From positions 1-59,423 of the IMG/VR virus record IMGVR_UViG_3300044723_010080: 59,423 nt of DNA. One strand, given 5' to 3'. Position 1 is the first letter of the stretch. Each line of letters begins with the position of its first letter. Positions 1,131 through 53,589 of this stretch are shown here, piece after piece. A program made the position numbers and the translations under genes. The stretch comes from a virus. Its lineage: Duplodnaviria > Caudoviricetes. The notes beneath the pieces were generated by a model. The model had not been told where the DNA came from. It was given only the letters and a program-made list of their open reading frames with translations, and did not search any database.

Positions 1131-4121
1131 ATGAGCACACTAGAAGGAAAATCAATAGCAACAACATACAAGGACTTGTTACAGGTCAGCAACAACAACA
1201 TTGGTATAGACAGCACCATACGACCCATAGAAGATGGTGAAGGGACACAGAGTGCGTTGGCTCTGAGCACTGACACTGTGGAGATACGTGGATCCATCAT
1301 TCCATCAACCAACTCAACTTTTGATATTGGTAGTGCGGAACGCAAGATCAGACACTTGTACCTGAGCAGCAACTCGTTGTATGTGGGTGATTTGCAATTT
1401 TCTGAACAAGATGTACAAGAGATTAAGAATGTACGTGGAGGGGCATACGCAACAAGCGCTCAAGGAGCATTGGCTGAAACAGCCATACAACCAGGTGCGT
1501 TTGCGTTCAGCTTGTTATCCGAGATACCAACCACACTGGCTGGTTATGGTATCATGGATGCAGCCACAGCAGCACAAGGTGCGGCAGCAGACACAGCACT
1601 GGCCAAAGCCAGCACCGCGTTGCAACCAGGTGGTGTGAGCTTCACTGATGATCTGACCGACCGACCAACCACCATCGCTGGTTATGGTATCACAGATGCC
1701 TTCAATGGTAGCTTCAGCAATTTGACCGGTCGGCCCACAAGTCTAGCAGGATACGGTATCACAGACGCCGCCACCAGTGCACAAGGAGACAAAGCGGACA
1801 GCGCGTTGCAACCAGGTGCCAACATACCTTTTTCCAACGTGAGTGACAAACCAACGAGCTTGGCTGGTTATGGTATCACAGACGCAGCCACAAGTGCACA
1901 AGGAGACAAAGCGGACAGCGCGTTACAACCAGGGGTGAACATTCCATGGTCCACAGTGAGTGACAAACCCACAAGTCTTGGTGGTTATGGTATCTTGGAC
2001 GCTGCCACCAGTGCTCAAGGAGACAAAGCGGACAGCGCGTTGCAACCTGACACCAACATACATGTGAACACCATGCATGTTAGTGGAGGTAAAATTTATG
2101 GACCAGCCACAATGTACATCGACCCGGAAGCAATTGGCGACAACACCGGCAAGCTGGTGGTGCTAGGTGATTTGCAAGTGGATGGAGTCACAACAACCGT
2201 GAACAGCACAACTGTTTCAGTCAGTGGTAAAACTATAGAGCTGGCAGGCGGTGCCACACAAGTTTCAGAAGCAGATGGAGCGGGTGTGACAGTAGCAAGT
2301 AGTGATGCAAGTATGTTGTATAAAACAGTCACCGATTCATGGAATTTCAACAAACAATTAAACGTAACAGGTAATGTAGGCGTTGGTACCACGAATCCTG
2401 CTGCCAAGTTAGAGATTCAAACCTCTTCAACAGGTCAAGAGGGAATTGTTATTAGAAATTCTCTTGGTATCATTACATCTGAGATTGGTCACCTAGGTGA
2501 TGATTCTGCATTCTTATCCATAAAAGATAAAGATGGTAATAATCAATGCATATTGAGAAATAATGGAGATTCATATTTAAATGCATTGGAAGGTAATGTA
2601 GGTATTGGTACTAGTTCGCCTACGTCCATTAGTGGGTATACTGGTGCGACATTAGATAACTCCACCGATGGGAGCTTTATTGATCTTCAAAGCAACGGTG
2701 TAACGGCGTTTCGTTTCCTTACAAATGGTAGCGTAAATAACATTGAATCACGCACTGAGACACCTATCGTGTTTTTACTTAATTCTCAAGATCATACTAA
2801 TATGGTTGAAGCCATGCGCATCACCTCCGACGGCAATGTAGGTATTGGTACTACGAATCCTAATGCGAAGTTGGAAATAAGTGGAGGTGGAACTGGTGTA
2901 TGGTTAAAAACCAATAATTTAACAAATCGAGCTGATTCTACAATGGCAGGTCAAAATTATATTAATTTAACAGATCAATTGCCATCCGATGAAAATTCAT
3001 TTGAAATAGGGCCCGGATATATCAATTTAAACAGGGATGATAGTGTACCCATAAATCAATTATCTTTTGGCATGAACGGTACACTCGGAGCTGCCATAGA
3101 GGTAGGTGGGGGTACTCCTAGTTCACCAAACAACCAACACTCATTGAGGTTTAAGGTTGGTAGGGATAATCAAGATAACAAGGCGGGTATTGAAAGAATG
3201 CGTATCGACTCCAACGGCAATGTAGGTATTGGTACTACGAGTCCTGATAGTGAATTGCACGTAAACGATGGAGATAGTGCTTCTCAAATTTATATTACAA
3301 GTAGCGACAATTCACTTGCTGGGCTTTATTTAGGTGACCAAACACGTGGTTTTCGTGGCGGTGTAATATACAATAACTCTACTGATTCTCTAGGGTTATG
3401 GGGTTACGCTGCTACAGGTTTCACAGCTCAAAGAATGACCATCGACTCCGCAGGCAATGTTTTAGTGGGCGGCTCAAGTCAAAGCGGTACTGCTAATAAA
3501 GTTATGGTCAAAAGTGCAGATAAGTTTGGCCTATCTATTATTGACACTACTGCCCAAGCAATCGGAGTTGGCGGTGCATTAAATCTTGGAGGCAATTATC
3601 GTACGTCTGGAGATGCACAAGCGTTTACAAGAATTGCGGCGCTAAAAGACAATTCAGCCGATGGTAACTTTGCCTATAGCATGGGGTTTTATACTACTCC
3701 TAATGGTGGCACGTTTACAGAACGCATGCGTATCGACAGCTCGGGCAATGTAGGCGTTGGTACTACGAATCCTGATGCGAAGTTGCATGTTGAAGGTCAT
3801 ATGATCTCCAGTTCACATAAATCAGGTCTGATGTACACAGTAGCAAACAGCTCTGCGTACCAAGCTAGTCAAACCATAAGTGTGACATTGCCCAGTATCG
3901 CGGAAGGGAACACATATCATTATACTGTGACGCGTCACAAGGGTGCAGGAAACAGACAGATATCAACTGGATACATAAGTTTCAACGGTCAAGCCGGTGG
4001 CGGCATTCATCCATTGGTCAACACTGGTGTGGCTGATGTTGTGATCTCTGGAAACACAGTGTCCGTGACAAATAATACTGAACTAGCTGTATTGAAGATG
4101 ACTTTTCTCAGAGTCGCATAA
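1131..4121 (+). CDS. Long tail fibre protein (996 aa)
   Basis: PTSLAGYGITDA repeats, multiple GNVGIGTTxP...ERMRI modules, and the shared N-terminus MSTLxGKSI..TYKDLLQVSN. TAAATA lies 6 nt upstream of the ATG. Confidence 0.85.
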   Translation: MSTLEGKSIATTYKDLLQVSNNNIGIDSTIRPIEDGEGTQSALALSTDTVEIRGSIIPSTNSTFDIGSAERKIRHLYLSSNSLYVGDLQFSEQDVQEIKNVRGGAYATSAQGALAETAIQPGAFAFSLLSEIPTTLAGYGIMDAATAAQGAAADTALAKASTALQPGGVSFTDDLTDRPTTIAGYGITDAFNGSFSNLTGRPTSLAGYGITDAATSAQGDKADSALQPGANIPFSNVSDKPTSLAGYGITDAATSAQGDKADSALQPGVNIPWSTVSDKPTSLGGYGILDAATSAQGDKADSALQPDTNIHVNTMHVSGGKIYGPATMYIDPEAIGDNTGKLVVLGDLQVDGVTTTVNSTTVSVSGKTIELAGGATQVSEADGAGVTVASSDASMLYKTVTDSWNFNKQLNVTGNVGVGTTNPAAKLEIQTSSTGQEGIVIRNSLGIITSEIGHLGDDSAFLSIKDKDGNNQCILRNNGDSYLNALEGNVGIGTSSPTSISGYTGATLDNSTDGSFIDLQSNGVTAFRFLTNGSVNNIESRTETPIVFLLNSQDHTNMVEAMRITSDGNVGIGTTNPNAKLEISGGGTGVWLKTNNLTNRADSTMAGQNYINLTDQLPSDENSFEIGPGYINLNRDDSVPINQLSFGMNGTLGAAIEVGGGTPSSPNNQHSLRFKVGRDNQDNKAGIERMRIDSNGNVGIGTTSPDSELHVNDGDSASQIYITSSDNSLAGLYLGDQTRGFRGGVIYNNSTDSLGLWGYAATGFTAQRMTIDSAGNVLVGGSSQSGTANKVMVKSADKFGLSIIDTTAQAIGVGGALNLGGNYRTSGDAQAFTRIAALKDNSADGNFAYSMGFYTTPNGGTFTERMRIDSSGNVGVGTTNPDAKLHVEGHMISSSHKSGLMYTVANSSAYQASQTISVTLPSIAEGNTYHYTVTRHKGAGNRQISTGYISFNGQAGGGIHPLVNTGVADVVISGNTVSVTNNTELAVLKMTFLRVA
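1528..2049 (+). repeat. Intragenic PTSLAGYGITDAATSAQGDKADSALQPG repeats (~120-bp units)
   Basis: Near-identical DNA units such as caaggagacaaagcggacagcgcgtt occur at ~1781, ~1899 and ~2016. Confidence 0.85.
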
Positions 4122-17817: not shown

Positions 17818-18077
17818 AATACATAATATCACAATCATTAACACATGCACTCTCCACTGTGTCACATATAGAGAGCAATTTAAATCTCACAAAAAACGAA
17901 CATGTAATTACATACGCAGAACCAGAGCTCATCTCTAATACATCACACGAATTGAGTGGTCACTACGTGATACCAATCGCAGATTTCGGGTGGTTGAAAT
18001 GTGATCAACTGTTCGATTCTCAACTGCTAGTCGATCAAGATATCACGTGGTTTGATACAGTCTCAACATCAGAATGA
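17814..18077 (+). CDS. Hypothetical protein (87 aa)
   Basis: ATG at 17814 overlaps the previous TGA (ATGA); last gene of the operon. Confidence 0.6.
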   Translation: MKYIISQSLTHALSTVSHIESNLNLTKNEHVITYAEPELISNTSHELSGHYVIPIADFGWLKCDQLFDSQLLVDQDITWFDTVSTSE

Positions 18078-18470
18078 TTATCGGTAGTTTTCTCCTGGAG
18101 AAGCCGTACACCTACAATGCACCTATATAACAGCTACAGGCAACATTGAGGTAGGTAGTCATTTCCTGTATGAATCCACTACACTAGAGCGTCACTCGTT
18201 TGAGATCTAAACTTTATGGAGAATCCCGACCTATAAACTCCGGTCTTACGACCGCTTAGACATGCCGACTTTCGTCGCGGTTCGGTGCTATGCGATTTCT
18301 TAAATCGCCGTTTTTCATCTGCCGCTCAGCAGGTGTGTTTGATTTAGCTTTGCCTCTTCCAGCAGTTCTCTCTGCCGAGTTACATACCATCTTGGAGTCA
18401 ACCACTACTCACGCTCGTGTACCGAAAACGCTGATGGGTATGCTGTAGCGTTGTTTCACACTTGTGCACT
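18078..18470 (-). ncRNA. Candidate large structured non-coding RNA (~390 nt), family unknown
   Basis: No ORF of 60 aa or more in the 441-bp gap. Many hairpins, including GNRA tetraloops on the minus strand (CGAC-GAAA-GUCG at 18266-18277; CGGUC-GUAA-GACCG at 18241-18254). Long-range helix 18443-18449/18133-18139. Promoter-like sequence upstream. Ends are approximate. Confidence 0.6.
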
Positions 18471-18476
18471 ATATAT

Positions 18477-18504
18477 ATGATAGTATACAAAAACTAGAAA
18501 TCAA
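18477..18504 (-). promoter_or_regulatory. Putative sigma70-like promoter for the candidate ncRNA
   Basis: Minus strand reads TTGATT-N16-TATCAT, back-to-back with the TAAATA element of the gp15-like gene. Confidence 0.4.
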
Positions 18505-18518
18505 CCATAAATAACTAC

Positions 18519-19592
18519 ATGCGCAGCAGTCCATTTTATTTTGAAGTTAAAGATGCCATCACACAATTTGTAGCAGCTTTCAATGATATCGTGATAAAGA
18601 GACACGATAAGTACAGAGACACAAGATCACACGTCAAGGTTAGATATGTGTATTCACCGAAACAACGTGTGATACATGACTTAACAAACAAGGCTAGGCA
18701 CATAACATTACCGGTGGTGGCTGTAAGTACATCTGGTATATCAAGAGACGAGAGCAGAGTGTTCAATAAATTATACGGTACATACCAGTCAGAGCAAGAA
18801 CGGCATCCGAGTTTTCCACGTACAGACAAAGCAGCTGTAACATACAATATACCTCAACCAGTACCAATAAACATAAGCGTCAATATGAGCATAATGGCAA
18901 GGTATCAAACAGACATCGAACAAATTTTGAGTAATTTTATACCATACAATGATCCATACATAATGATATCATGGAAAGTACCAGCTCCGTTTTTTCCAAC
19001 AGAACAGGAGATAAGATCTGAAGTATTATGGAGCGGGGACATTTCAATGGATTATCCGGAGCAACTCTCAAGCACCGAACCTTATAGACTGAGCTGTGAC
19101 ACGAGCTTCACTATAAAAACCTGGTTGTTCAAGAGAGCTAGCAATCAACCAATAAGCAACATATACAAAATAACAACAAACACCACACCAGTTTTGAATT
19201 TTGATGATTTAGATGGCGATACTCAAACATCAACAGACAACACCTTCGGACCACCGTTAACAGCAGCTCCATACATAACACATGTTGGTGAGTATGGCGA
19301 CATGAGATCTGTCATGGGATATAATTTTCAAAGCACAACAAACGTTTATCTCTCATCTACAGAGATTAATCAGTTGAGTGGTATACAAGTTGATCCACAT
19401 GGCTCTCGACAAATATCCACACATTTTCCTGCATTCACTGGTGTACCTGTTGATTTTGAAGTAGTTAACGACAATATCATCAACATAGACACAACAATTT
19501 TGAATGATAATAAATCAACAGATGTTTTAATACTAAACGCCGGAGGTTATGGTTCGATCAATTTATCTGATCATCATCAACAATTAATATAA
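18519..19592 (+). CDS. T4 gp15-like tail sheath stabilizer/terminator
   Basis: FVAAFNDIVIKR...YSPKQR...ITLP...RDESR...PVPINI...EQILSNFIPY matches the gp15 family pattern. Confidence 0.8.
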   Translation: MRSSPFYFEVKDAITQFVAAFNDIVIKRHDKYRDTRSHVKVRYVYSPKQRVIHDLTNKARHITLPVVAVSTSGISRDESRVFNKLYGTYQSEQERHPSFPRTDKAAVTYNIPQPVPINISVNMSIMARYQTDIEQILSNFIPYNDPYIMISWKVPAPFFPTEQEIRSEVLWSGDISMDYPEQLSSTEPYRLSCDTSFTIKTWLFKRASNQPISNIYKITTNTTPVLNFDDLDGDTQTSTDNTFGPPLTAAPYITHVGEYGDMRSVMGYNFQSTTNVYLSSTEINQLSGIQVDPHGSRQISTHFPAFTGVPVDFEVVNDNIINIDTTILNDNKSTDVLILNAGGYGSINLSDHHQQLI

Positions 19593-19656: not shown

Positions 19657-22600
19657 ATGGCCAAATGTAACAACAACATAACTGTTGCGAGTCTCCCTAC
19701 ATGTGACAATGTGAACGAGAATGATTATCTCATCGTGTATAATAATGATAGTACATGTAAAGTTAAGTTCTCAGATTTTGTTTTTGGTGCAGAGAATCTT
19801 GATTTTTATCCAGATCTCGAAGAATTGATTTTAAATGTTGAATCGTTGAATAGTGTTGTTATACCTGGTTCAGCAAATTGGAACAGTGTTTACACAACAG
19901 TTCAATTGAATTCAGCTGGTTGGGAATCTCTAGCAGATGGAGATGTGCCTACCTTACTGCAACAAGTCAGAGAAAATGGTGGAAGATGGGATGATGTTGC
20001 TTCAACAGTGAGTAACACTAGTGGTTCATGGGACAGTACCACAGCATTAGTAAATCAAAAATATAGTACTTGGGATCGGGTGGCTATTGAGTTTGACTCA
20101 AGTAAAGACAATTGGGATTCAGCTTACAACGCAACAAGAGACGGTATACAAGCGATATACGAAGCTCTCGCGATGATCGAGACACAGCCATGGTATGAGT
20201 ATCTAACAATCAATACAGGTGATGGTGATGGTGATGGTACAGGTATTGGTGGAGTTAATTATGCAGCATTTCATTCACTGTATACAACTGTTGAACTCAA
20301 CAGCGCGAGCTGGGAGGAGAGCTTTGAAATATCAACACTTTCAGCGCGAGTAGATGATCTAGAACAAACCATAATGGATGGATATCCATTCCTGTCATTA
20401 CAAGGTGGTACGGTCACAGGTCGTGTCAATATATCAGATGATTTGTATGTTACAGGTGATATTCGCGCGACTGGTGATCTATATGTTAATAAGAATAGTA
20501 TTGTCTTCTCAGACGATCAAACATGGAGCAGTGATGACGCGACACATAGTAAACAAGTGTTCAACAACTACTCTGAGTTGAGTGCTGCTTTTGAAGCCAC
20601 AACAAATCTTGTCAATGAAAATAATGCTACCTGGGAACAAGCGAGTAACACGGTTTTAGAAAATGAAATACGCTGGAACAGTGCATATGAGAGAATACAG
20701 AGTTCAGCGAGTAGTTGGGATCAAGCGGTAAGTTCTGTAAATGCCAACAGAGATGATTGGTCATGGGCTTATAACACAGTCACAACAAGTAAAATAGCAT
20801 GGGATCAAGCTGCTGACAAAATAAATGCATCTGAAGATGAGTGGGATTACGCTTACCGTGCAGTATTATCTGGATCAATAAATTGGAACAACACAAGCAA
20901 TGTTGTGACAGATAATGCAGATGATTGGACCGACACACATGATATTGTTGTAGCCAAGCAATCAGATTGGGATCAGGCATACAACATTGTTGTGGCCAAC
21001 AGTAACAGTTGGAATGACGTAACAACACGTGTCTCATCAGATGCTAGCAAATGGGATCAAATATACACAATAGTCACAGCGAATAGCGCTAAATGGAGTG
21101 ACCAACCAGACGTCACATTATTAACAGGATTGTTGGCCAAACAAACATTTTGGGATCAAGCATACACAATAGTCACAGCAAACAGCGCTGATTGGTCAGA
21201 TCAACCTGATGTGACATCATTGTTAACCAAACAAGCGTTTTGGGATCAAACATACACGATAGTAACAGCGAACAGCTCATATTGGAGTGATTCGATAAGA
21301 CAATTACAAGTCGATATAGATGACTTAACTGTAGAAGTCGGTGACGTTGCAACAATCGTCAGAACCAATAGTGCTGAGTGGTTCTCTCCTCCAGAATTAA
21401 CAGCTATTGTTAGTACTGGAAGCGCGAACTGGAATCAAACATACAGCTGGATGTTATCTGATAGTCCTACAAATAATACCACATACAATCAGAGCACATT
21501 TGTGAATGTGTCAGGAGACGCAATGACCGGCAGTTTGAGTGTTGATGCGGATGTATCAGTACACGACAATCTAAAAATTTACGAAGGTAAAATAATATTT
21601 GGTGATGGTCAAGTGTTTCATGGTGTAGTACATGACCCTCTCGCTACAGAAGAATTAACAAAACAAAACGTTAAAGATTTCAAAAGTGTTTACAATGTTG
21701 TTCATAACAACAGTGGTGATTGGTTCTCACCACCTGAACTAACCGCGTTGATTGAAGACACACACAGTGTAGTGTCGATGAACAGCGCTAGTTGGGAAGA
21801 AAGTCACGAAATCGAACAATTCGCTAGCTACATACGTGGCGTGAGTGGTGGATGGGAAGACACACACAACTGGGTGGAGCAAACCAGCGCTACAAACAAT
21901 CCAACATACAATCAAGCAACTTTTGTAAACGTGTCTGGTGACACTATGACAGGTGATTTGAATGTTGATGCTAATGTTAATATACATGATGATATCAATC
22001 TAGTTGAAGGTAGTATAATATTCGGAGACGGTCAATATTTTCATGGTGTGACACACGATCCAGCTGCAATTGAAGAACTGAACAAGCAGCACGTTAGAGA
22101 TTTTAAAGATGTACAGTCTGTTGTGTCTACCAACAGTGGTGACTGGTTCTCACCACCAGAACTAACAGCGCTTGTCAATGCAACCCATCTGACAGTTAAT
22201 ACAAACAGTGGTAGTTGGAGTGATGCATACAACACACTATCAACCGCTAGCGCTGAATGGGATGTCGCGTACAGTTATGTCACGACCGAGAGTGCCACAA
22301 ACAACACAGCATACAACAGATCAACTTTTGTAAATGTGTCTGGAGACACAATGACAGGACCTTTATGTGCTGAACAGAACATACACATATTGGATGGAGA
22401 TCTGGTATTTGGTGATGACGGTGTGGCACACGGTCATGAGCATACCCCGGGTGAGATTGAAGTGCTATCCAAACAAGATTTACGAAATCTCAAGGGTGTG
22501 TACAGTACAGTATTTATAAATAGTGGCAACTGGTTCACACCACCTGAAATCATAACATTACTCAACTCTAGTAGTGCAAATTGGAACTATGCATATGATA

Positions 22601-25600
22601 CTGTTGTAGCACGTGAAGAGGACTGGGATGCAACAGCACAACGCGTTGAACTATCCGGTGATCATTGGGACCATGCTCACACTATAGTGCTTGTCAACAG
22701 CGCCAACTGGAATGCGACATATAGTAGAGTTTACACATCCGGTGACAACTGGGATTCAACGTATCACCGAGTTGATCAATCAGCTGACAACTGGGATCAA
22801 ACACATACAGATGTTGAAGCAAGTAAGGGTAGATGGACAGCCGCTGCTAGTTGGGTAGAGTCAGAGAGTGCAACAAACAACAGCGATTACAACAGAACAA
22901 CTTTTGTGAATGTGACTGGTGACACAATCACCGGTGATCTTGATGTGAATGGTAGATTACATGCAGCCAGTGACTTGAACATAACTGCAGGTAGTTTGTT
23001 GTTTGGTGATGGTGATTGGGATCATGATATTTATCACGCGCCAGAAAATCTTGAAAGTCTATCTAAACAAGATGTAAGGAACTTCAAGAACGTTTACACA
23101 GATGTAAGTGAAACTAGTGCTAATTGGAATAGCACATACAGCTGGATTCAAACTGACAGTGCAACCAACAACAGTGATTACAACAGAACAACATTTGTAA
23201 ATGTTACCGGTGACACCATAACCGGTGATCTAGATATCACAGGTAAAATAACAAGTAACGAGGCATACTTCACCAGCATCACAGCTGTTAGCAGCTTTGT
23301 TGATGTGATCGACATCAAGGTACGTGAGCTCAGCGGATATGATATCATCGACGGAGATTTGAGTGTTGACGGTGATGTTAGTGCCCAGAGCAATTTATAT
23401 GTAACAGATGGTAGGATCACGTTTGGTGATAATCATTTAGCACATGGTTTTGAGCATGCACCAGAAGAAATTGAACATCTAACCAAGCATGATGTGCGTG
23501 ATTTCAAAAGCACATACAGCACAGTTTACACAAACAGTGCGGATTGGGTAGACTCAATGTCCCTCGTCCGAAGCTCTAGTGCAAACTGGGAGAGTGCATA
23601 TAACAGTGTATTAACAACCAGTGCCGACTGGAACAGCACACGTAACAGTGTCAACACAACCAGTGCCAATTGGGATAGTGTTTACACAGATGTTAGTGTC
23701 AACAGTGCAGATTGGAACAGCACACATGCAAGTGTGTTAACGACAAGTGCTAATTGGAACAATGTTTACACAGATGTAAGCGTCAACAGCGCGGATTGGA
23801 ACAGTACGAGACTTAGTGTCAACACAACCAGTGCCAATTGGAACAATGTTTACACTGATGTCAGCGAGACAAGCGGTGATTGGAACAGCACACGTTTGAG
23901 TGTCAATAGTACAAGTGCCGAGTGGAACAGTGTGTATAGTTTTGTTAACACTGACAGTGCAACCAACAACAGTGATTACAACAGAACCACATATGTAAAC
24001 ACATCCGGAGACACAATCACCGGTGATCTGGATATAACAGGTCATGTTGAGATTACAGAGAGAATCGGCTTAGGGGATGACTTGAATTTAACTACTGGAA
24101 ATATTTTGTTTGGTGATGGTGATTGGGATCATGGTATTTATCACGCGCCAGAAAATCTTGAGAGTTTAACCAAGCAAGATGTAAGGAACTTCAAGAATGT
24201 TTACACAGATGTTAGTGAAACAAGCGCTGAGTGGAACAGTGTGTATAGTTTTGTCAACGCTGATAGTGCCACTAACAACAGCGATTACAACAGAACCACA
24301 TTTGTAAACACATCCGGTGACACCATAACTGGTGATTTGGACATCACAGGTCATCTATCTGGTACAACAGCTGTATTCACCAGCATAACTGCATTGAGTA
24401 GTTTTGTTGATGTTATTGACATCAAGGTTAGAGAGCTCAGCGGCTATGACATCATTGATGGAGATTTGAGTGTTGGTGGTGATGTAAGTGCGGAGAATGA
24501 TCTGTATGTGACTGACGGTAAAATAACTTTTGGTGACAATCACTTGGCACATGGTTTTGAGCATGCTCCGGAGGAGATTGAACACCTCACCAAGCACGAT
24601 GTACGTGACTTCAAAAGCACACGTTTGAGTGTTTACTCAACAAGTGCGGATTGGAACAGCACACGCAACAGTGTTTATGGAGCTAGTGCCAATTGGAACA
24701 ATGTTTACACAGATGTGAGTGTAAACAGCGCGGATTGGAACAGTACAAGACTCAGTGTCAACACAACCAGTGCCAATTGGAACAATGTATATACTGATGT
24801 AAGTGAAACAAGCGGTGATTGGAACAGCACACGCAACAGTGTCAACACAACCAGTGCCAATTGGGATAATGTTTACACTGATGTAAGTGAAACCAGCGCT
24901 AGTTGGGACAGTGTATACAATTTTGTCAACGCTGATAGCGCTACTAACAACAGTGATTACAACAGAACAACATTTGTAAACACATCCGGTGACACCATAA
25001 CTGGTGATCTTGACATCACAGGTAAACTCACAGGTAATGAAGCGTACTTCACGAGTATAACAGCTGTTAGTAGTTTTGTTGATGTAATTGACATCAAGGT
25101 ACGTGAGCTCAGCGGATATGATATCATCGACGGAGATTTGAGTGTTGGTGGCAAAACAACAATTGATACAGATTTGTTTATTACACACGGTGACATAACA
25201 TTTGGAGATAGTGGATTGGCGCACGAACATGAACATACACCTGAAGAAATCGAGCATCTCACAAAGTATGACGTTAGAGATTTCAAGAGTACACGTCTAA
25301 GCGTTTACACAACAAGTGGTGACTGGGACAGCACACATGCAAGTGTGTTTGATACTAGCGCCAGCTGGGACAGTGTTTATAGTTTTGTCAACACCGATAG
25401 TGCTACAAACAACAGTGATTACAACAGAACTACTTTTGTTAATGTTACAGGTGATCTGATGACCGGTCCGTTGAGTAGCACAGACAATATACATGTTCTA
25501 GAAGGTAAAATAATATTTGGTGATGATGGGTTCACACATGGTCATGACCACACACCAGAGGATTTAGAAGATTTCACCAAGCGCGATTTAAGAGATTTCA

Positions 25601-28600
25601 AAAGCACATACACAAGCGTGTATGACACTAGTGCCAACTGGGACAGTGTGCATGCTAGTGTGTTAGCAACAAGCGGTGATTGGGACAGCACACATACAAG
25701 CGTGTATGACACTAGTGCCAACTGGGACAGTGTGCATGCGAGTGTACTTGCAACAAGCACAAATTGGGACAATGTTTACACAGATGTTAGTGAAACAAGT
25801 GCCGAGTGGGACAGTGTGTATAGTTTTGTCAACGCTGACAGTGCAACCAACAACAGTGATTACAACAGAACCACATTTGTCAACGTAACTGGTGACACCA
25901 TAACCGGTGATCTTGACATTCAAGGTCATTTAACTGGTACAACAGCTGTTTTCACGAGTATAACAGCTTTGAGTAGTGTTGTTGACGTTATTGATATCAA
26001 AGCTAGAGAGCTAAGCGGGTATGATATTATTGATGGTAATTTGAGTGTTGATGGTGATGTCAGCGTGCAAAATGACCTATATATAACTGATGGTCGTCTA
26101 ACATTTGGTGATAATCATATGGTGCACGGGTTTGCTCATGCACCGGAAGAGATTGAAGATCTTACCAAGTATGATGTGCGTGATTTCAAAAGCACACGAT
26201 TGAGTGTATATACAACTAGCGGGAATTGGGACAGTGTACATGCTAGTGTGTTGACAACCAGTAGCAATTGGGACAGTGTTTACAACTGGGTTCATGCTGA
26301 CAGTGCAACCAACAACAGCGATTACAACAGAACCACATATGTTAATGTCTCTGGTGACTTGATGACCGGTCCGTTGAGCTCAACTGACAATATACATTTG
26401 CTGGAAGGGGAGCTTGTTTTTGGTGATGATGGGTTCACACATGGACATGACCACACACCGGAAGATATTGAAAGATTCACAAAACGTGATCTTAAAGATT
26501 TCAAAAGCACATATACTAGTGTATATGACACTAGTGCCAACTGGGATAGTGTGCACGCTAGCGTGTTAGCAACAAGTGCAGAGTGGGACAGTGTGTATAG
26601 TTTTGTCAACACTGACAGTGCCACCAACAACAGCGATTACAACAGAACCACATATGTCAATGTTACAGGTGACACCATAACCGGTAGCTTGAGTGTTGTA
26701 GAAAATTTTGATGTAGATGGTAATACAAGACTTAGAGGAGACTTAATTGTTGACGGTGATGTTTGGTTCACAGCTGGGAATCAAGGTGGTAAAGTCACAA
26801 TAAACCTCGGTGATAATGATACAGATAATATTGTATTTAACGCAGATGTAGATAGTAATATCGCGCCTGATAAGGACGTGACATACACTCTAGGTACCAC
26901 AGCAAACCAATGGAAGACATTACATGTGCAAGATGTTGAGGCATCTAATGATATAACAGCTGATAATAATTTATATATAACACACGGGGATTTGATATTT
27001 GGTGACAGTGGTTACGATCATGGACATGAACACACCCCGGAAGAAGTTGAACATCTGAACAAGTTTGATGTTAGAAACTTCAAGAGCACACATCTAAGTG
27101 TGTTTAATACAAGCGCCAATTGGGACAATGTTTACACTGATGTGAGTGTCAACAGTGCTGATTGGAACAGCACCCGTAACAGTGTACATGCTACTAGCGC
27201 TAGTTGGGATAGTGTGTATAGTTTTGTCAACGCTGATAGTGCTACTAACAACAGTGATTACAACAGGACAACATATGTCAATGTGACAGGTGACACAATA
27301 ACTGGTCACTTGAATGTTTCAGACAGAGTCGAGTTATCAAACGACTTGAATTTATTGACCGGTAGTGTTTTGTTTGGTGATGGTGATTGGGAACATGATA
27401 GTTACCATGCTTCAGAAAATCTTGAGAGTTTAACCAAACAAGATGTAAAGAATTTTAAGAATGTTTACACAGATGTAAGCGAGACAAGTGCCAGTTGGGA
27501 CAGTGTGTATAGTTTTGTCAACGCTGATAGTGCTACTAACAACAGTGATTACAACAGAACTACTTTTGTTAATGTTACAGGTGACACCATAACTGGTGAT
27601 CTGGATATAACTGGTAAGATCACGAGTAACGAGGCTTACTTCACCAGCTTGACAGCAGTTAGTAGCTTTGTTGACGTTATTGATATTAAAGTCCGGGAGC
27701 TCAGCGGATATGACATCATTGACGGAGATCTTAGTGTTGGTGGTGATGTAAGTGCTGAGAACAATTTATATGTAACGGACGGTAAGATCACATTTGGTGA
27801 CAATCACTTGGCGCATGGCTTTGTACATGCACCAGAAGAAATTGAACATCTAACCAAATATGACGTAAGAGATTTCAAGAGCACATACAGCACAGTATAT
27901 ACAAACAGTGCACGTTGGGGACAGGCATATACATTCCTGAATCAGAACAGTGCTAATTGGGAGAGTACATATCAAAGTGTGTTGACTACAAGTGCCAACT
28001 GGGACAATGTTTACACAGATGTTAGTGTCAACAGTGCCGATTGGATGAGTACATACGCGAGTGTGTATAACACCAGCGGCAATTGGGACAGTACGCATGC
28101 GAGTGTGTTAGCCAATAGTGCTAATTGGGATAGTGTGTACAGTTGGGTCAAAGCGGACAGCGCCACCAACAACAGCGCATATAATGAAACAACATATGTT
28201 AATGTGGCCGGCGACACCATAACAGGTAGTCTAGAAGTACAACAAGAGATTATAACCATGAACATCAACTCCGGTGCACCGGAAAATCGATTGTTGTTGT
28301 TAGGAGGTTCTCAATGGGACAATGGAGCAAGAATCGAATTGTACGGTGCAAACAACTCTAACAGTGTACTTGATGGACGTGTACATATACACAGCAACGA
28401 TCTGTTCGTTGGAGATGTCTATGATGCTGTTGATGGAAACGCTCCATGGATGTTTCGAATAAATGTTGATCAGGAACAAGTGATGATTGGTGGTCTCAAT
28501 CCAATTGATGATAGTATGTTATCAATACACGGCAAGACAACTATTGATGGTGATACAAAAATCACCGGGGATGTCACAACTAGCAACGTTGTGTTTAATG

Positions 28601-31600
28601 GTACTGGCGCGTCGGAAACATTAACCAAACAAGATGTAAAGAATTTTAAAAATGTTTATACAGATGTTAGTGTCAACAGCGCGGATTGGAACAGCACACG
28701 CAACAGTGTTTATGGAGCTAGCGCCAATTGGAACAATGTTTACACAGATGTTAGTGTCAACAGCGCGGATTGGAACAGCACACGCAACAGTGTTTATGGA
28801 GCTAGCGCCAATTGGAACAATGTTTACACAGATGTAAGCGAGACAAGTGCCAGTTGGGACAGCGTGTATAGTTTTGTCAACGCTGATAGTGCTACTAACA
28901 ACAGTGATTACAACAGAACCACATACGTAAATACATCAGGTGACACAATAACCGGTGATTTGGACATCACAGGTAAAATCACGAGCAATGAAGCATATTT
29001 CACCAGCTTGACAGCTGTGAGCAGCTTTGTAGATGTTATTGACATCAAGGTACGTGAACTGAGTGGCTATGATATCATCGACGGAGATTTGAGTGTTGGT
29101 GGTGATGTAAGTGCGGAAAATAATTTATATGTAACGGACGGAAAAATAACGTTTGGTGATAATCATTTAGCACATGGTTTTGTACATGCGCCAGAAGAAA
29201 TTGAACATCTTACCAAGCATGATGTGCGTGATTTCAAGAGCACATACAGCACAGTGTACACAAACAGTGCGTTATGGACGTCCAGTTTTGATCAAGTAAG
29301 AGCATTGAGTGCTAATTGGGAAAGTACATACATAACCATGTTAACCAACAGCGGTAACTGGTTCAACACACATTTGACAGTTAATGAACTCAGTGCTAAT
29401 TGGAACAGTACATACGCGAGTGTGTATAGTACCAGCGGCAATTGGGACAGTACGCATGCGAGTGTGTTAGCCAATAGTGCTAATTGGGATAGTGTGTACA
29501 GTTGGGTCAAAGCGGACAGCGCCACCAACAACAGCGCATATAATCATGCTACATACGTTGATATTACAGGTGATGTGATGACAGGTGGTCTTGAAGTGCA
29601 GCAAGGTATAGTCACACAAATGATCCGATCTAACGACCCAACTAAAAAATTGGGGTTATATGGAGGTTCAGGTGTAGATGATGGAGCTAGGATAGAGATA
29701 CTAGGAGGTAATCAAGGCAATAGTAGTAACGACAACAGAATACAATTACATGCAGATGATATTTTTGTTGGTGATGTTTTTGATCCAATAGACAACAACA
29801 ATCCTTGGGTGTTCAGAATTAAAGTTGACGATCAAAATATTGTCATTGGTGGTTTAAATCCAATTGATAATAGTGTTTTAACAGTACACGGATACACAAC
29901 AATCGATGGTGATGCACGTGTTACAGGTAATATCAAAGTTGGTGACATAACGTTCAATGGTACAGGAGAGATTGAAAACTTGACCAAACTAGATGTACGC
30001 AATTTCAAAAGCACATACACCAGCGTGTATGATACAAGTGCCAATTGGGATAGCGTGCATGCAAGCGTGTTGGCTACCAGTGCCGATTGGAACAGTACAT
30101 ACACCAGTGTATATGAAACAAGCGCGCTGTGGGACAGTGTTTATAATAGTGTTTTTGAAACAAGCGGAGATTGGAACAGCACACGAACAAGTGTATTTGA
30201 AACGAGTGCTGATTGGAATAGTACACGTACCAGTGTTTTTGAAACAAGCGGAGATTGGAACAGCACACGAACAAGTGTATTTGAAACGAGTGCTGATTGG
30301 AATAGTGTGTATAATTGGGTTCAAGCTGATAGTGCCACTAACAACAGTGATTACAACAGAACCACATACGTTAATGTAACCGGCGACGCAATCACAGGTG
30401 ACTTGGATATTTCAAATCGTGTGTCAGCGTATGAAGGTTATTTTACTAGTTTGACAGCCGTGAGCAGTTTTGTAGATGTTATCGACATCAAAGTACGTGA
30501 ACTGAGTGGTTATGATATTATCGATGGTGATTTACGAGTTGATGGAGACACAACAGTTGATAGATTGTTGTTAGGAGAAGATAAAGATCCGTTGACAGAA
30601 TTCACTGGCGGTCAAACACTCAACATAACAAATGATGATGATAGTAGAGTGTCTAGCAAATACAAATATACACACGCTGTTAACGTTTATGGCACTAGCA
30701 ACTTTTTGATAAATGGTGTTGAGTTCCAGGCCGAGACACAAGGTTACGGATCCAACTGGTCAATATCAGATTCAACCGGTAACGCGTTGCATTTAGAAAC
30801 AACATCTGTATCAGGTTATGTTGGTGAGATGCTAGCAGACAATCATAGATACATTGTTGACACACAAACAATAACATTGTCAGGTCTTGCGACCGGTAGA
30901 AAATATGCATTCACCATGTATAACCAAGCTTGGTCGACAGACAATGTACCTAAACGTGCTTTGATATCAAGTGACAGTGACACATCAATTGTACCGGTTG
31001 ATCAAAATGAGTTTGTTGGTTCGACCGATGGTCAAATTGTTGAATATGTTTTTGTAGCTCATGACGATGTTGTTACAATATCAATCACACCAGATCCAGA
31101 CTCATCTTGGAATTTATATGCGTTTAGTAATCGGGAGGTTTGGAGTTATGGTACTGAAACATTAACAAGCTTAGATGTATCAAATTTTAAAAGTACATAC
31201 ACAAGCGTGTACGAAACAAGTGCTAGCTGGGACAGTGTGTATAGTTTTGTCAACGCTGATAGTGCTACTAACAACAGTGATTACAACAGAACGACATATG
31301 TTAATGTCTCTGGGGACACAATAACAGGAAGTCTGAGCGTGCAACAAGACATAACGATTGATGGTACAACCATGTTGAGTGGTGAGATGTTCATCGACGG
31401 ACATGCCACATTCAACAACGGTGTCACAGCGGAAAACAATGTGTACATCAAGGGTGATCTGAGAGTTGATGGTAATGTTTGGTTGTTGGCTGGGGTTGGT
31501 GATGTTATAAATGTAGGTGAGAGTGCAGATGATGTTGTTGTATTTCAAGCACCTGTTGATAGTGGTATTGTACCTTTTGAGACCGGTGTGCACAATCTAG

Positions 31601-33111
31601 GCTCACCTGACAAAGCTTGGAAAAATGTTTATGCTGACGCTATCGTGCTTGATGATATATCGCTACTACCTGAAGATGTTAGATCGATACAAGGTGCTGG
31701 AAGCATTGTCTCAACGAACAGTGGATACTGGAACGATGGATACACACATACAACTAGACTCACCAGTGAGACTGAAATTTTAACAGACAGGGTCGATTCA
31801 TTGTATCATTACACAATAAACAATTTTGACAAGAGTGTTGTCACATACGAGCCTCGATTGGATCAGTATATTGAAGATGAGATGGTACCAGGATCAATGA
31901 TGCTTGGTGATGTTGTGATAATTGCAGCAGAGAACACAGCATATCTTTTGTCTAAAAATGATGGTAGTTCAGTAGATGATTGGACACCAGTTCGCGCCAA
32001 ACCAAACACACTATTTTACAAGACAAATCTTTTGGATGGTAATGTTGTTGATAGTATAGACATGACGAGATACAAATCTGCGAAGTACACTATAGAAATA
32101 GAGGCAGCTGATCAAATAATGTTCACTGAGATCAGCATGATAACAAACGGAATCAACGGCAAGTTGGTTGAGTATTGTATCAATCATACAACAGATGAAC
32201 CATTTATCGAGTTTGAAGTCAACATGAACAGTCAGACATCCGAGTGTGAATTGATCATGAAAGAGATTCCTAACATACAGACATTATGGGATCCCGGGGT
32301 GTTAACTGCTAAATCATTCACATGGCTTGATGCTGCAGATTCAAGCAAGATTGAACTGGATAGCTTGAACACATTCACCAAGTGGCGCAACAGCGGAAAG
32401 ACAGATTTGTACATGTGGGCACATGCAGGATCTGAACCAGAGTATGTCACCACTGGACCTGAACAACTCAACAACCGCAATGTGTTGAAGTTCACCGGAA
32501 ACACAGACTTTATCGAATCTGCATACGAAGATGGTGAATCACGCGGCAAGTGGAACGAGGATCCAGTTGTTTGGTATCTGGTTTTCAAACCCACGGGTGT
32601 TGATAACTTTCATGATTACTTGCTGTGGTTCGAACAAAGCACCGGGCAGAATCTAGCGATCGTACCAGGAGATAATGATGAATTTTACGGTCGTGTGTGG
32701 ATGAAAACAAATGAATTAGGCAATGGTCCATATCCATTCACCAAGTCGTTCAGTCCAACAGACTTAATAAATCAATGGAACATATTTGAGTTAGAGATCA
32801 ATCCTGTGACACAAAAATCATCGATGTATTTGAATGGTCATTTGATTCAAGAGGATGTGGATATGGATTATGAATTTTTGAAAACATCGGAACATAAATT
32901 CAAGCTACATGCTAATTGGATCGGTAGTCAATTCACAGACGGTTACTTGGCAGAATTTTTAGTGTTGGAGGATTATCAACGCGTACAAACAGAAGGTTAC
33001 CTTGCATGGAAGTGGGGACTCGCTGATAAACTACCTGATAATCATACATACAAGAACAGAGCGCCACAAGCACCATGCGTGTTCAAAGGCAACAGAACTA
33101 ATCTTTTTTAA
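19657..33111 (+). CDS. Giant (4484 aa) repetitive fibre protein with C-terminal LamG-like domain
   Basis: 14-aa W-periodic TSANW repeats and recurring DSATNNSDYNRTT, VIDIKVRELSGYDIIDG and His-rich FGD modules. C-terminal WLDAAD...EGYLAWKWGL. Confidence 0.85.
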   Translation: MAKCNNNITVASLPTCDNVNENDYLIVYNNDSTCKVKFSDFVFGAENLDFYPDLEELILNVESLNSVVIPGSANWNSVYTTVQLNSAGWESLADGDVPTLLQQVRENGGRWDDVASTVSNTSGSWDSTTALVNQKYSTWDRVAIEFDSSKDNWDSAYNATRDGIQAIYEALAMIETQPWYEYLTINTGDGDGDGTGIGGVNYAAFHSLYTTVELNSASWEESFEISTLSARVDDLEQTIMDGYPFLSLQGGTVTGRVNISDDLYVTGDIRATGDLYVNKNSIVFSDDQTWSSDDATHSKQVFNNYSELSAAFEATTNLVNENNATWEQASNTVLENEIRWNSAYERIQSSASSWDQAVSSVNANRDDWSWAYNTVTTSKIAWDQAADKINASEDEWDYAYRAVLSGSINWNNTSNVVTDNADDWTDTHDIVVAKQSDWDQAYNIVVANSNSWNDVTTRVSSDASKWDQIYTIVTANSAKWSDQPDVTLLTGLLAKQTFWDQAYTIVTANSADWSDQPDVTSLLTKQAFWDQTYTIVTANSSYWSDSIRQLQVDIDDLTVEVGDVATIVRTNSAEWFSPPELTAIVSTGSANWNQTYSWMLSDSPTNNTTYNQSTFVNVSGDAMTGSLSVDADVSVHDNLKIYEGKIIFGDGQVFHGVVHDPLATEELTKQNVKDFKSVYNVVHNNSGDWFSPPELTALIEDTHSVVSMNSASWEESHEIEQFASYIRGVSGGWEDTHNWVEQTSATNNPTYNQATFVNVSGDTMTGDLNVDANVNIHDDINLVEGSIIFGDGQYFHGVTHDPAAIEELNKQHVRDFKDVQSVVSTNSGDWFSPPELTALVNATHLTVNTNSGSWSDAYNTLSTASAEWDVAYSYVTTESATNNTAYNRSTFVNVSGDTMTGPLCAEQNIHILDGDLVFGDDGVAHGHEHTPGEIEVLSKQDLRNLKGVYSTVFINSGNWFTPPEIITLLNSSSANWNYAYDTVVAREEDWDATAQRVELSGDHWDHAHTIVLVNSANWNATYSRVYTSGDNWDSTYHRVDQSADNWDQTHTDVEASKGRWTAAASWVESESATNNSDYNRTTFVNVTGDTITGDLDVNGRLHAASDLNITAGSLLFGDGDWDHDIYHAPENLESLSKQDVRNFKNVYTDVSETSANWNSTYSWIQTDSATNNSDYNRTTFVNVTGDTITGDLDITGKITSNEAYFTSITAVSSFVDVIDIKVRELSGYDIIDGDLSVDGDVSAQSNLYVTDGRITFGDNHLAHGFEHAPEEIEHLTKHDVRDFKSTYSTVYTNSADWVDSMSLVRSSSANWESAYNSVLTTSADWNSTRNSVNTTSANWDSVYTDVSVNSADWNSTHASVLTTSANWNNVYTDVSVNSADWNSTRLSVNTTSANWNNVYTDVSETSGDWNSTRLSVNSTSAEWNSVYSFVNTDSATNNSDYNRTTYVNTSGDTITGDLDITGHVEITERIGLGDDLNLTTGNILFGDGDWDHGIYHAPENLESLTKQDVRNFKNVYTDVSETSAEWNSVYSFVNADSATNNSDYNRTTFVNTSGDTITGDLDITGHLSGTTAVFTSITALSSFVDVIDIKVRELSGYDIIDGDLSVGGDVSAENDLYVTDGKITFGDNHLAHGFEHAPEEIEHLTKHDVRDFKSTRLSVYSTSADWNSTRNSVYGASANWNNVYTDVSVNSADWNSTRLSVNTTSANWNNVYTDVSETSGDWNSTRNSVNTTSANWDNVYTDVSETSASWDSVYNFVNADSATNNSDYNRTTFVNTSGDTITGDLDITGKLTGNEAYFTSITAVSSFVDVIDIKVRELSGYDIIDGDLSVGGKTTIDTDLFITHGDITFGDSGLAHEHEHTPEEIEHLTKYDVRDFKSTRLSVYTTSGDWDSTHASVFDTSASWDSVYSFVNTDSATNNSDYNRTTFVNVTGDLMTGPLSSTDNIHVLEGKIIFGDDGFTHGHDHTPEDLEDFTKRDLRDFKSTYTSVYDTSANWDSVHASVLATSGDWDSTHTSVYDTSANWDSVHASVLATSTNWDNVYTDVSETSAEWDSVYSFVNADSATNNSDYNRTTFVNVTGDTITGDLDIQGHLTGTTAVFTSITALSSVVDVIDIKARELSGYDIIDGNLSVDGDVSVQNDLYITDGRLTFGDNHMVHGFAHAPEEIEDLTKYDVRDFKSTRLSVYTTSGNWDSVHASVLTTSSNWDSVYNWVHADSATNNSDYNRTTYVNVSGDLMTGPLSSTDNIHLLEGELVFGDDGFTHGHDHTPEDIERFTKRDLKDFKSTYTSVYDTSANWDSVHASVLATSAEWDSVYSFVNTDSATNNSDYNRTTYVNVTGDTITGSLSVVENFDVDGNTRLRGDLIVDGDVWFTAGNQGGKVTINLGDNDTDNIVFNADVDSNIAPDKDVTYTLGTTANQWKTLHVQDVEASNDITADNNLYITHGDLIFGDSGYDHGHEHTPEEVEHLNKFDVRNFKSTHLSVFNTSANWDNVYTDVSVNSADWNSTRNSVHATSASWDSVYSFVNADSATNNSDYNRTTYVNVTGDTITGHLNVSDRVELSNDLNLLTGSVLFGDGDWEHDSYHASENLESLTKQDVKNFKNVYTDVSETSASWDSVYSFVNADSATNNSDYNRTTFVNVTGDTITGDLDITGKITSNEAYFTSLTAVSSFVDVIDIKVRELSGYDIIDGDLSVGGDVSAENNLYVTDGKITFGDNHLAHGFVHAPEEIEHLTKYDVRDFKSTYSTVYTNSARWGQAYTFLNQNSANWESTYQSVLTTSANWDNVYTDVSVNSADWMSTYASVYNTSGNWDSTHASVLANSANWDSVYSWVKADSATNNSAYNETTYVNVAGDTITGSLEVQQEIITMNINSGAPENRLLLLGGSQWDNGARIELYGANNSNSVLDGRVHIHSNDLFVGDVYDAVDGNAPWMFRINVDQEQVMIGGLNPIDDSMLSIHGKTTIDGDTKITGDVTTSNVVFNGTGASETLTKQDVKNFKNVYTDVSVNSADWNSTRNSVYGASANWNNVYTDVSVNSADWNSTRNSVYGASANWNNVYTDVSETSASWDSVYSFVNADSATNNSDYNRTTYVNTSGDTITGDLDITGKITSNEAYFTSLTAVSSFVDVIDIKVRELSGYDIIDGDLSVGGDVSAENNLYVTDGKITFGDNHLAHGFVHAPEEIEHLTKHDVRDFKSTYSTVYTNSALWTSSFDQVRALSANWESTYITMLTNSGNWFNTHLTVNELSANWNSTYASVYSTSGNWDSTHASVLANSANWDSVYSWVKADSATNNSAYNHATYVDITGDVMTGGLEVQQGIVTQMIRSNDPTKKLGLYGGSGVDDGARIEILGGNQGNSSNDNRIQLHADDIFVGDVFDPIDNNNPWVFRIKVDDQNIVIGGLNPIDNSVLTVHGYTTIDGDARVTGNIKVGDITFNGTGEIENLTKLDVRNFKSTYTSVYDTSANWDSVHASVLATSADWNSTYTSVYETSALWDSVYNSVFETSGDWNSTRTSVFETSADWNSTRTSVFETSGDWNSTRTSVFETSADWNSVYNWVQADSATNNSDYNRTTYVNVTGDAITGDLDISNRVSAYEGYFTSLTAVSSFVDVIDIKVRELSGYDIIDGDLRVDGDTTVDRLLLGEDKDPLTEFTGGQTLNITNDDDSRVSSKYKYTHAVNVYGTSNFLINGVEFQAETQGYGSNWSISDSTGNALHLETTSVSGYVGEMLADNHRYIVDTQTITLSGLATGRKYAFTMYNQAWSTDNVPKRALISSDSDTSIVPVDQNEFVGSTDGQIVEYVFVAHDDVVTISITPDPDSSWNLYAFSNREVWSYGTETLTSLDVSNFKSTYTSVYETSASWDSVYSFVNADSATNNSDYNRTTYVNVSGDTITGSLSVQQDITIDGTTMLSGEMFIDGHATFNNGVTAENNVYIKGDLRVDGNVWLLAGVGDVINVGESADDVVVFQAPVDSGIVPFETGVHNLGSPDKAWKNVYADAIVLDDISLLPEDVRSIQGAGSIVSTNSGYWNDGYTHTTRLTSETEILTDRVDSLYHYTINNFDKSVVTYEPRLDQYIEDEMVPGSMMLGDVVIIAAENTAYLLSKNDGSSVDDWTPVRAKPNTLFYKTNLLDGNVVDSIDMTRYKSAKYTIEIEAADQIMFTEISMITNGINGKLVEYCINHTTDEPFIEFEVNMNSQTSECELIMKEIPNIQTLWDPGVLTAKSFTWLDAADSSKIELDSLNTFTKWRNSGKTDLYMWAHAGSEPEYVTTGPEQLNNRNVLKFTGNTDFIESAYEDGESRGKWNEDPVVWYLVFKPTGVDNFHDYLLWFEQSTGQNLAIVPGDNDEFYGRVWMKTNELGNGPYPFTKSFSPTDLINQWNIFELEINPVTQKSSMYLNGHLIQEDVDMDYEFLKTSEHKFKLHANWIGSQFTDGYLAEFLVLEDYQRVQTEGYLAWKWGLADKLPDNHTYKNRAPQAPCVFKGNRTNLF
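28651..28833 (+). repeat. 84-bp near-perfect tandem duplication within the giant gene
   Basis: The unit acagatgttagtgtcaacagcgcggattgg...gctagcgccaattggaacaatgttta is repeated. Confidence 0.85.
30148..30306 (+). repeat. 84-bp tandem duplication within the giant gene
   Basis: The unit agtgtttttgaaacaagcggagattggaacagcacacgaacaagtgtatttgaaacgagtgctgattggaatagt occurs twice. Confidence 0.85.
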
Positions 33112-51334: not shown

Positions 51335-51884
51335 ATTGTATTGTTTCTAAAATTGTTCCCATTCTGTCTTCAACTGTACCAGACAGTCTTACCACTTTGT
51401 CCATCCAGTAGTAATCCTGTGCAAACAAGTCTTCATAACGATTAATTATGTCTTGTCTAAAATTTAAATCAACACTTCTCGTACCGTCAGCTACTAATGG
51501 TACATCCTCCGGTTGTGTGTAAAATATAACATCAATTTTATCTATCAGTAAATTGAGTAGATTGCATGCATATGTAGTTATCCATTCACTCACCTTGCCC
51601 ATTCTTGCTAGACATGACGTGTACACATAGCCATCTAATATACATCTATCGAGCAACATGTCATGTTTGAGTGTATGGTTGTTCAGATGTTCATTCAATA
51701 TCATCAATTGTGTGATATCATTTCCATCTAAATTAATTTTATGACCTTCACGCTTCACCTTTCTTGTCACCTCCTGCACAAAATTGAAATTATGAAATGC
51801 CTCATTTATACCTTTCAACTCTGAACATCTGGACAGTAACGTCGATTTACCTGTGCATTGTGCTCCTGTGAATCCGATTAACAT
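51297..51884 (-). CDS. P-loop nucleotide kinase-like protein (AAA_28/dNMP kinase type)
   Basis: N-terminal GAQCTGKS, LLDRCILD and DGTRS motifs. Confidence 0.75.
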   Translation of the reverse strand: MLIGFTGAQCTGKSTLLSRCSELKGINEAFHNFNFVQEVTRKVKREGHKINLDGNDITQLMILNEHLNNHTLKHDMLLDRCILDGYVYTSCLARMGKVSEWITTYACNLLNLLIDKIDVIFYTQPEDVPLVADGTRSVDLNFRQDIINRYEDLFAQDYYWMDKVVRLSGTVEDRMGTILETIQYENSDIRQFQNI

Positions 51885-51890
51885 ATTTCT

Positions 51891-53586: not shown

Positions 53587-53589
53587 TTT

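Follow-up and report, generated by a model that had tools for sequence, protein, structure and literature searches.

The pRNA of phage phi29 is a structured phage RNA that is read from a host-type promoter, has a role in virion assembly and makes loop-loop contacts between its molecules, and the RNAs OLE and HEARO each have particular proteins as partners. Large intricate noncoding RNAs (ncRNAs) of unknown function are seldom found, and so far every new class has opened up unexpected biology or structure. In the passages of PMC12286853 that treat them, ROOL and GOLLD are presented as large ornate RNAs of phages and prophages, often located near tRNA islands and of unknown function, and ROOL, GOLLD and OLE are stated to form RNA-only assemblies. 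Here we describe an RNA of about 390 nt encoded upstream of a gp15-like tail sheath stabiliser gene in a 59,423-nt stretch of DNA from an uncultivated virus of the Caudoviricetes (IMG/VR record IMGVR_UViG_3300044723_010080, positions 1 to 59,423; hereafter the window), a fragment whose completeness is estimated by CheckV at 39%. With a length above 300 nt, an extensive covarying fold, pseudoknots and no open reading frame (ORF), the RNA falls within a loose definition of large ornate phage ncRNAs, and it appears to match no described RNA family. In our view the stretch 18085-18470 is very probably an autonomous minus-strand gene for a large pseudoknotted ncRNA, which has its own sigma-70 promoter and would act by its fold in trans rather than as an antisense or cis-regulatory transcript.

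Conservation and fold of the RNA

The structural genes of the window are packed end to end on the plus strand. A preliminary description of this DNA had pointed to a single large ORF-free gap among them, and indeed the 441 nt at 18078-18518 form the sole gap longer than ~170 nt between plus-strand ORFs over 1 to 47.7 kb, with all six frames interrupted by stops. A search with gp15 provided eight loci as first relatives. In three of them (gp15 protein 55-57% identical), 279-281 nt of the gap can be aligned by blastn, with a DNA identity of 77%, so that the noncoding stretch is better kept than the adjoining protein gene, with its protein identity of ~56%; the other five (gp15 40-41% identical) have an unrelated ORF immediately upstream of gp15 and no element. 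Further copies were retrieved by conserved motifs from viral contigs and metagenome contigs (51 metagenome stretches), and an nhmmer profile identified the element in 85 + 5 fetched loci, one per locus. These loci include many contigs retrieved from two collections and correspond to 43 + 5 distinct sequences that are full-length (372-407 nt) and sharply bounded. In the window the profile matches 18086-18474, and the conserved core of the gene spans 18085-18470 on the minus strand, with a 5' end predicted at ~18470 and a 3' end that may extend to the left of 18085. The flanks outside the core are not conserved.

The fold of this RNA is under strong selection. For 26 sequences in the minus-strand sense, RNAalifold gives 70 pairs, and in 38 of these compensatory double changes occur. 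The curated fold, based on an alignment of 43 sequences (A2), consists of 16 helices with 84 pairs in all, and two of the helices are pseudoknots. In the curated fold 97.6% of cells are paired, against 33.8-39.5% in slid controls, in which the 3' partners are displaced by 1-3 columns; 44 of the 84 pairs are changed on both sides, against 10-14 in these controls, and the covariation score is 0.362 against 0.045-0.094, a value reached by none of 500 shuffles. The preliminary description had proposed a large structured phage ncRNA and had suggested looking for covariation in relatives upstream of gp15, and the proposal is borne out by these pairs. The alignments are MAFFT-based, not structure-based, and the poorly aligned region from P9 to the direct repeat R1 (see below) was left unfolded. 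The five most divergent members, a later addition in a crude alignment, keep 70-77 of the 84 pairs and bring covariation to formerly invariant pairs, for example P3 of the locus L101.

Read from its 5' end on the minus strand, the RNA begins with P1 (18440-18470; helices 1-2), a stem of 5 bp in which all five pairs covary, closed around the hairpin P1a (18447-18462) with a conserved GAAACA loop. It is followed by a three-way domain (18386-18438; helices 3-5) formed by P2 (CCAUC/GAUGG), P2a (18411-18431) and P2b (18395-18410). The near-invariant tip of P2a, UUUUCGGUACACGAG, is replaced in L070/L075 (A2 columns 46-66), L100, L103 and L104, where compensatory changes preserve the basal helix, suggesting that the motif is dispensable in some lineages. 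The hairpin P3, UCGGCAG-AGAGAA-CUGCUGG (18359-18378; helix 6), has two invariant G-U pairs around a covarying C-G/U-A pair. The linker at 18336-18358 (helix 7) contains one strand of the pseudoknot PKb (18353-18355, alignment columns 124-126) and then the near-invariant single strand AAGCUAAAUYAAAC. Next come the hairpin P4 (18319-18332; helix 8), which in the plus-strand reading is a hairpin followed by a U-rich run, and a segment at 18292-18318 (helix 9) with the invariant GAAAAACGGC ahead of the hairpin P5 (18292-18308), which on the plus strand reads as a hairpin followed by CGUUUUU. The segment at 18264-18288 (helices 10-11) consists of the invariant GCACCGAAC and the variable hairpin P7, all five pairs of which covary. 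A second three-way domain (18205-18261; helices 12-14) is built from P8 (8 bp, seven covarying), P8a (18242-18253) and P8b (18218-18241), the latter with a conserved loop of 17 nt, UUUAUAGGUCRGGAUUC. The short hairpin P9 (CUC-loop-GAG, 18195-18204; helix 15) and the hairpin P10 (18115-18148, 11 curated pairs; helix 16), whose loop takes part in PKb, complete the fold. Four long stretches are invariant yet unpaired, namely the linker single strand, the segments ahead of P5 and P7, and the P8b loop.

The two pseudoknots, PKa and PKb, had been missed by RNAalifold and were recognised by mutual information. In PKa, the C or U directly before P7 pairs with a G or A in the P8b loop (U-A 34, C-G 9), and in PKb the three linker bases after P3 pair with the P10 loop (G-U 22/G-C 15/A-U 4; A-U 36/G-C 6/U-A 1; C-G 33/U-A 9). 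Moreover, a competing pairing exists between GCAU after P7 and AUGY at the foot of P10, which is 100% canonical (C-G 32, U-A 11), and the same AUGY strand has an alternative partner in an identical GCAU inside P10. Two other RNAalifold suggestions, a long-range GCACC/GGUGC helix and the pairing of CCG with GG of the repeat R2, involve pairs that are invariant or mismatched; they are unsupported and were not used.

Seven of the eight helices drawn in the preliminary description are retained by covariation, with curated coordinates 18264-78 (CGAC/GUCG), 18242-53 (GGUC/GACC), 18292-308, 18319-32, 18359-78, 18386-438 (CCAUC/GAUGG) and 18115-48. The eighth, a helix GCUACAG/CUGUAGC joining the 5' and 3' parts, was lost together with the pseudoknot drawn from it, as most of its pairs are non-canonical in the 43-sequence alignment and it is specific to the window. 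The two GNRA loops that had been pointed out occupy hairpin tips that vary, and they are not conserved.

A protein gene is hardly a credible reading of the stretch. An ORF of ~145 aa would fit into a 441-nt gap, and some relatives carry an ORF of 125-150 aa upstream of gp15, so that a decayed or unusually coded gene might be thought of; however, stops occur in six frames, the longest local ORF (49 aa) is intact in 5 of 43 sequences, indel lengths do not keep to multiples of three, and substitutions follow the pattern of a paired RNA. No similarity was found to the ORFs that relatives carry upstream of gp15, whether the ORF of L003-L007 or the small protein of L001/L002, and a decayed homologue of these was rejected. 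In L003-L007 an ORF of ~150 aa replaces the RNA upstream of gp15; its translation is phosphoribosyltransferase-like, as judged by eye only.

Strand, promoter and expression

The RNA-coding strand is the minus strand, as had been proposed. The curated fold contains 400 G-U cells against 24 A-C cells and is 97.6% canonical on the minus strand against 87.1% on the plus strand. The G-U excess is in part built in, because the curated fold began from the minus-strand RNAalifold prediction; among the helices predicted by RNAalifold on both strands, the counts are still 32 against 12. Several pairs run G-C / G-U / A-U in the minus-strand sense, and the two invariant G-U pairs of P3, which would be C-A mismatches on the plus strand, also support this assignment.

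The minus-strand promoter noted in the preliminary description, TTGATT-N16-TATCAT (18504-18477), is present and conserved. Its -35 element TTGATT (18499-18504) and its -10 element TATCAT (18477-18482), separated by a 16-nt spacer, predict a start ~7 nt downstream, at the foot of P1, and thus an RNA start near 18470. The pattern TTGNNN-N15-17-TANNNT, ending ~7 nt before the P1 foot, was found in all 40 distinct sequences with enough flank, with TTGATT (26), TTGACT (13) or TTGCAT (1) as -35 element and TATAAT (13), TATCAT (12), TATTAT (6), TAAAAT (6) or TAATAT (3) as -10 element. Sigma-70-like patterns are not enriched in the window by themselves (4 matches, 1.9 expected), and it is this conservation that carries the promoter claim. 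A perfect promoter of the same type, TTGACA-N17-TATAAT, lies at 54430-54458 (minus) ahead of a minus-strand operon at 50393-54549. From the promoter type, the RNA would be read from its own promoter by a host-type (sigma-70) polymerase, hence probably early.

Only one of the 90 fetched loci has the cassette inverted, and it bears on the autonomy of the gene. In this locus (L101:3560-4030) the RNA (3601-3992) stands between the same neighbours but points the same way as gp15, and at its 5' end it still has a TTGAAA-N17-TATAAT promoter of its own, which lies within the 3' end of an upstream 125-aa ORF. This shows the cassette to be a self-contained gene with no need of an antisense orientation to the late genes.

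Both the strand and the promoter bear on the reading in which the element serves the plus strand, as a terminator of the upstream late genes, as a structured leader of gp15 or as both, the minus-strand RNA being a by-product. Two terminator-like hairpins with U-runs are indeed found on the plus strand (18292-18308 and 18316-18335, against 0.8 expected), the plus-strand GCCGTTTTT is invariant in 43 of 43 sequences, and the wobble pairs of P4 and P5 show no strand bias. Such a role leaves unexplained the G-U excess over the whole fold, the invariant wobble pairs of P3 and the leftward promoter conserved in 40 of 40 sequences, and the L101 inversion strips the hairpins of their U-tails toward the late genes and yet keeps both fold and promoter. 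We therefore regard this reading as very unlikely; P4 and P5 may nevertheless double as plus-strand terminators in the copies other than L101.

Another reading is that leftward sigma-70 transcription silences or delimits the convergent late genes in cis, as an antisense regulator or insulator, with a fold that only stabilises the RNA. RNA gene and upstream late gene are convergent, the stop codon of the latter ending at 18077 and so 8 nt short of the core; a conserved terminator was not seen, and contigs in two RNA libraries extend 43-64 nt beyond the 3' edge of the core. However, the core lies between that stop codon and the gp15 ATG (18519) and overlaps no ORF, the flanks are unconserved and the upstream neighbour ORF varies between lineages, from 85 to 968 aa. 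The inversion in L101 abolishes the antisense relation and the RNA is retained, and a stabiliser would need far less than sixteen helices with covariation, pseudoknots and invariant single strands of such length. A cis-antisense function is therefore very unlikely in our opinion, and a minus-strand RNA gene that acts through its fold is preferred. Late read-through of the plus strand would produce the complement of this RNA in 89 of the 90 fetched loci, and one may speculate that it could switch the RNA off late in infection.

In a k-mer index, 20 RNA-library runs hold 22-46% of the sampled words of the element; contigs of four of these runs, from four studies, were compared with the window, and only these are counted. 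Contigs matching the element are present in all four metatranscriptome libraries: X1 (433 nt, window 18082-18450), X2 (424 nt, 18082-18472), X5 (405 nt, 18063-18424) and X6 (247 nt, 18207-18453). In three of the four, a single contig of 405-433 nt spans most of the element, and the main contigs of X1, X2, X5 and X6 stop short of extending past the predicted start. Beyond 18082-18084 the contigs continue with unlike sequence, indicating that they come from relatives with other flanks, and their stops at that side are uninformative, as are flanks that no contig covers. These contigs give a weak hint of an abundant RNA of ~400 nt.

Several observations weigh against an autonomous RNA acting in trans. 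The library matches are assembled contigs that carry no strand information and in which DNA carry-over is possible, and one low-depth X5 contig of 151 nt (18382-18514) crosses the predicted start. No conserved intrinsic terminator closing the RNA gene was found in the relatives. The window sequence folded singly has a minimum free energy of -110.9 kcal/mol on the minus strand (z = -0.78; 16 of 100 shuffles equal or better) and of -98.4 kcal/mol on the plus strand (z = +0.26; 58 of 100). It thus folds no better than chance, a result that the preliminary description had held to speak against a structured RNA; we consider it outweighed by the covariation, and the structural case consequently rests on the relatives. 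To these points are added the built-in share of the G-U excess and the terminator-like, strand-neutral P4 and P5. Finally, that the RNA acts in trans we infer from its many helices, two pseudoknots, invariant single strands, the competing GCAU/AUGY pairings, the twin repeats and its indifference to orientation. Action through its three-dimensional fold is the most likely reading of these features, and the RNA might serve as a scaffold or decoy, assemble with itself or switch between two states, or conceivably be a ribozyme; the roles of ribozyme, scaffold and decoy had been suggested in the preliminary description.

Direct repeats and genomic context

P10 is bracketed by two direct repeats of 15 nt that are 80% alike, R1 (18154-18168 on the minus strand; RNA sense CAGGAAAUGACUACC) and R2 (18083-18097 on the minus strand; RNA sense CAGGAGAAAACUACC), the latter at the 3' edge of the conserved core. 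The two repeats evolve in concert: within one sequence they agree at 8.47 of 13 variable positions, against 5.52 of 13 between sequences less than 80% alike, and the observed value was reached in none of 10,000 permutations. The base before GGA is the same in R1 and R2 in all 48 sequences (U/U 33, C/C 12, A/A 3), and a mixed state was never seen. A tree built without the repeats implies 9 changes of state; of these, at least 4 for U/U, 2 for C/C and 2 for A/A are required by well-supported branches. This lockstep represents a covariation that ordinary base pairing leaves unexplained. Indeed, no alignment column covaries as the complement of the variable repeat base, and RNAduplex identified no consistent partner site for R1 and R2, the pairing of R2 with UUCUCC of P8b being available in about half of the sequences and that with the P2b loop in few. 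No third copy or complement of the repeat was found in the window, and matches beyond the two copies of the element itself in two records of 147 and 98 kb were at control level.

Candidate causes that we considered are closure of the P10 domain by a 4-bp antiparallel helix CnGG:CnGG, twin sites for one partner and homo-base pairing. In the CnGG:CnGG model an invariant G would stand opposite n, so that tandem G-C, G-U or G-A pairs would result. Small RNAs that titrate CsrA/RsmA expose many GGA motifs in hairpin loops. R1, R2 and the P8b loop carry CnGGA-type motifs, and the six GGA counted by eye in ~390 nt are at chance level. The lockstep of R1 and R2 (repeats of 15-18 nt) around P10, together with two GCAU competing for one AUGY, raises the thought of an RNA with an architectural principle, either two-state or self-pairing and possibly multimeric; its fixed place beside neck and tail genes further suggests that it might be an assembly RNA of T4-like phages analogous to phi29 pRNA. 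We regard this as a doubtful but conceivable proposal. No hairpin loop switching between palindromes, a hint of homo-oligomers, was seen by eye in the aligned copies.

The repeats could also be iteron-like protein sites around an inverted repeat, which would make the element a DNA-level replication origin, packaging or recombination site. Their concerted evolution on either side of the P10 inverted repeat and the location of the element where gene content varies would fit such a site. The covariation, by contrast, passes via G-U intermediates on one strand only and extends to long-range pseudoknots, a conserved promoter reads into the element, and all four RNA libraries compared hold a match to it, which makes a DNA element highly improbable.

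The conserved neighbour of the RNA gene is the gp15-like tail sheath stabiliser gene (18519-19592, plus strand), assigned by its match to phrog_227 (E = 1.3e-17) and by synteny. Of the 71 loci that extend at least 900 nt on the gp15 side, 62 have a co-oriented gp15 homologue within 1200 nt and 7 more within 1671 nt; of the remaining two, one has no gp15 in its retrieved DNA and the other is L101, with its inverted RNA. Outside the RNA, an ATAAATA at 18507-18513 on the plus strand is located 5 nt ahead of the gp15 ATG and back to back with the RNA promoter; we take it to be a T4 late-promoter core, and aligned relatives have a conserved TTATTTAT (RNA sense) at this site. This placement suggests that the RNA gene and gp15 are divergent units with promoters back to back. 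In many relatives the RNA promoter and gp15 are separated by an additional ORF of 100-140 aa (L001:2655-2960 and its equivalents), which is absent from the window and gave no PHROG match. The next gene after gp15 in the window is a single ORF of 4484 aa (19657-33111). When the neighbouring proteins were compared with PHROGs, gp15 (phrog_227), one weak clamp-loader-like match and one family of unknown function were found, and nothing RNA-related.

All copies come from marine viral and metagenome contigs, and the phages are widespread in marine and estuarine samples; the RNA is common to a single lineage of T4-like phages that are marine and uncultivated. Among cultured phages, the nearest are T4-like cyanophages, pelagiphages and Methylophilales phages, with a gp15 only 28% identical. 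Comparison by blastn with 50,697 phage records and with E. coli genomes gave no similar DNA. In the genomes of 185,579 prokaryote species (one genome per species), two pattern scans returned 0 and 1 stretches and no true cellular or prophage copy. The single stretch (L099:245-295) has ~47 nt that are almost the same as the P8b hairpin with its loop; it is located within a 421-aa ORF on a contig of a bacterial metagenome-assembled genome and was set aside as a chance match, for which our own estimate of the expectation with this pattern is ~0.03.

Comparison with known structured RNAs

The novelty suggested in the preliminary description was confirmed against Rfam 15, whose coverage includes GOLLD, ROOL, OLE, HEARO, RNase P, tmRNA, group I/II introns, 6S, IMES and small ribozymes. 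At gathering score the whole window gave no match. At E <= 10, the region 17900-18650 gave only a chance-level match to Toga_5_CRE (13.4 bits against 120), and eight further copies gave three unrelated weak matches, none to a large structured RNA family. In line with the earlier statement that tRNA and tmRNA signatures are lacking, ARAGORN identified none of either in the window or in 34 related loci.

No description of the RNA was found in the full-text literature, a search that leaves aside the supplementary lists of PMC10690425. In the part of that work considered here, Fremin, Bhatt and Kyrpides (2023) report a covariation screen of IMG/VR intergenic regions with 8,495 candidates from DNA viruses; the candidates are 29-151 nt long, and none is named there as lying upstream of gp15 (PMC10690425). 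At these lengths the whole 390-nt RNA cannot be among the candidates as there described, and pieces of it may be, given the same IMG/VR source.

Like the bacterial RNAs OLE, HEARO (IscB omega) and raiA, the RNA upstream of gp15 is large, structured and defined by comparative analysis; it differs from them in having no Rfam match and no adjoining partner gene such as IscB. With phi29 pRNA it shares a phage origin, a structured fold and a host-type promoter, and its location in a morphogenesis module would fit an assembly role; the pairing of loop and linker in PKb could in principle be intermolecular, similarly to the loop-loop contacts of pRNA. However, there is no sequence or model similarity to pRNA in Rfam, and the phage is of another type, a T4-like myovirus.

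The closest resemblance in kind is to ROOL and GOLLD, insofar as these are characterised in the sections of PMC12286853 drawn on here: the RNA is likewise phage-encoded and several hundred nt long, with covarying helices, pseudoknots, long invariant unpaired stretches and no ORF. It does not match their Rfam models, and its ~390 nt contrast with GOLLD, described in the same sections as having 'many members exceeding 800' (PMC12286853). It is well defined by its sharp boundaries, own promoter, 48 sequences and two pseudoknots, and small enough for chemical probing and cryo-EM. Finally, ROOL and GOLLD are placed near tRNA islands in those sections (PMC12286853), whereas this RNA lies in the late structural module beside gp15, and its position in a virion-assembly block sets it apart from the other large phage RNAs described there near tRNA genes.

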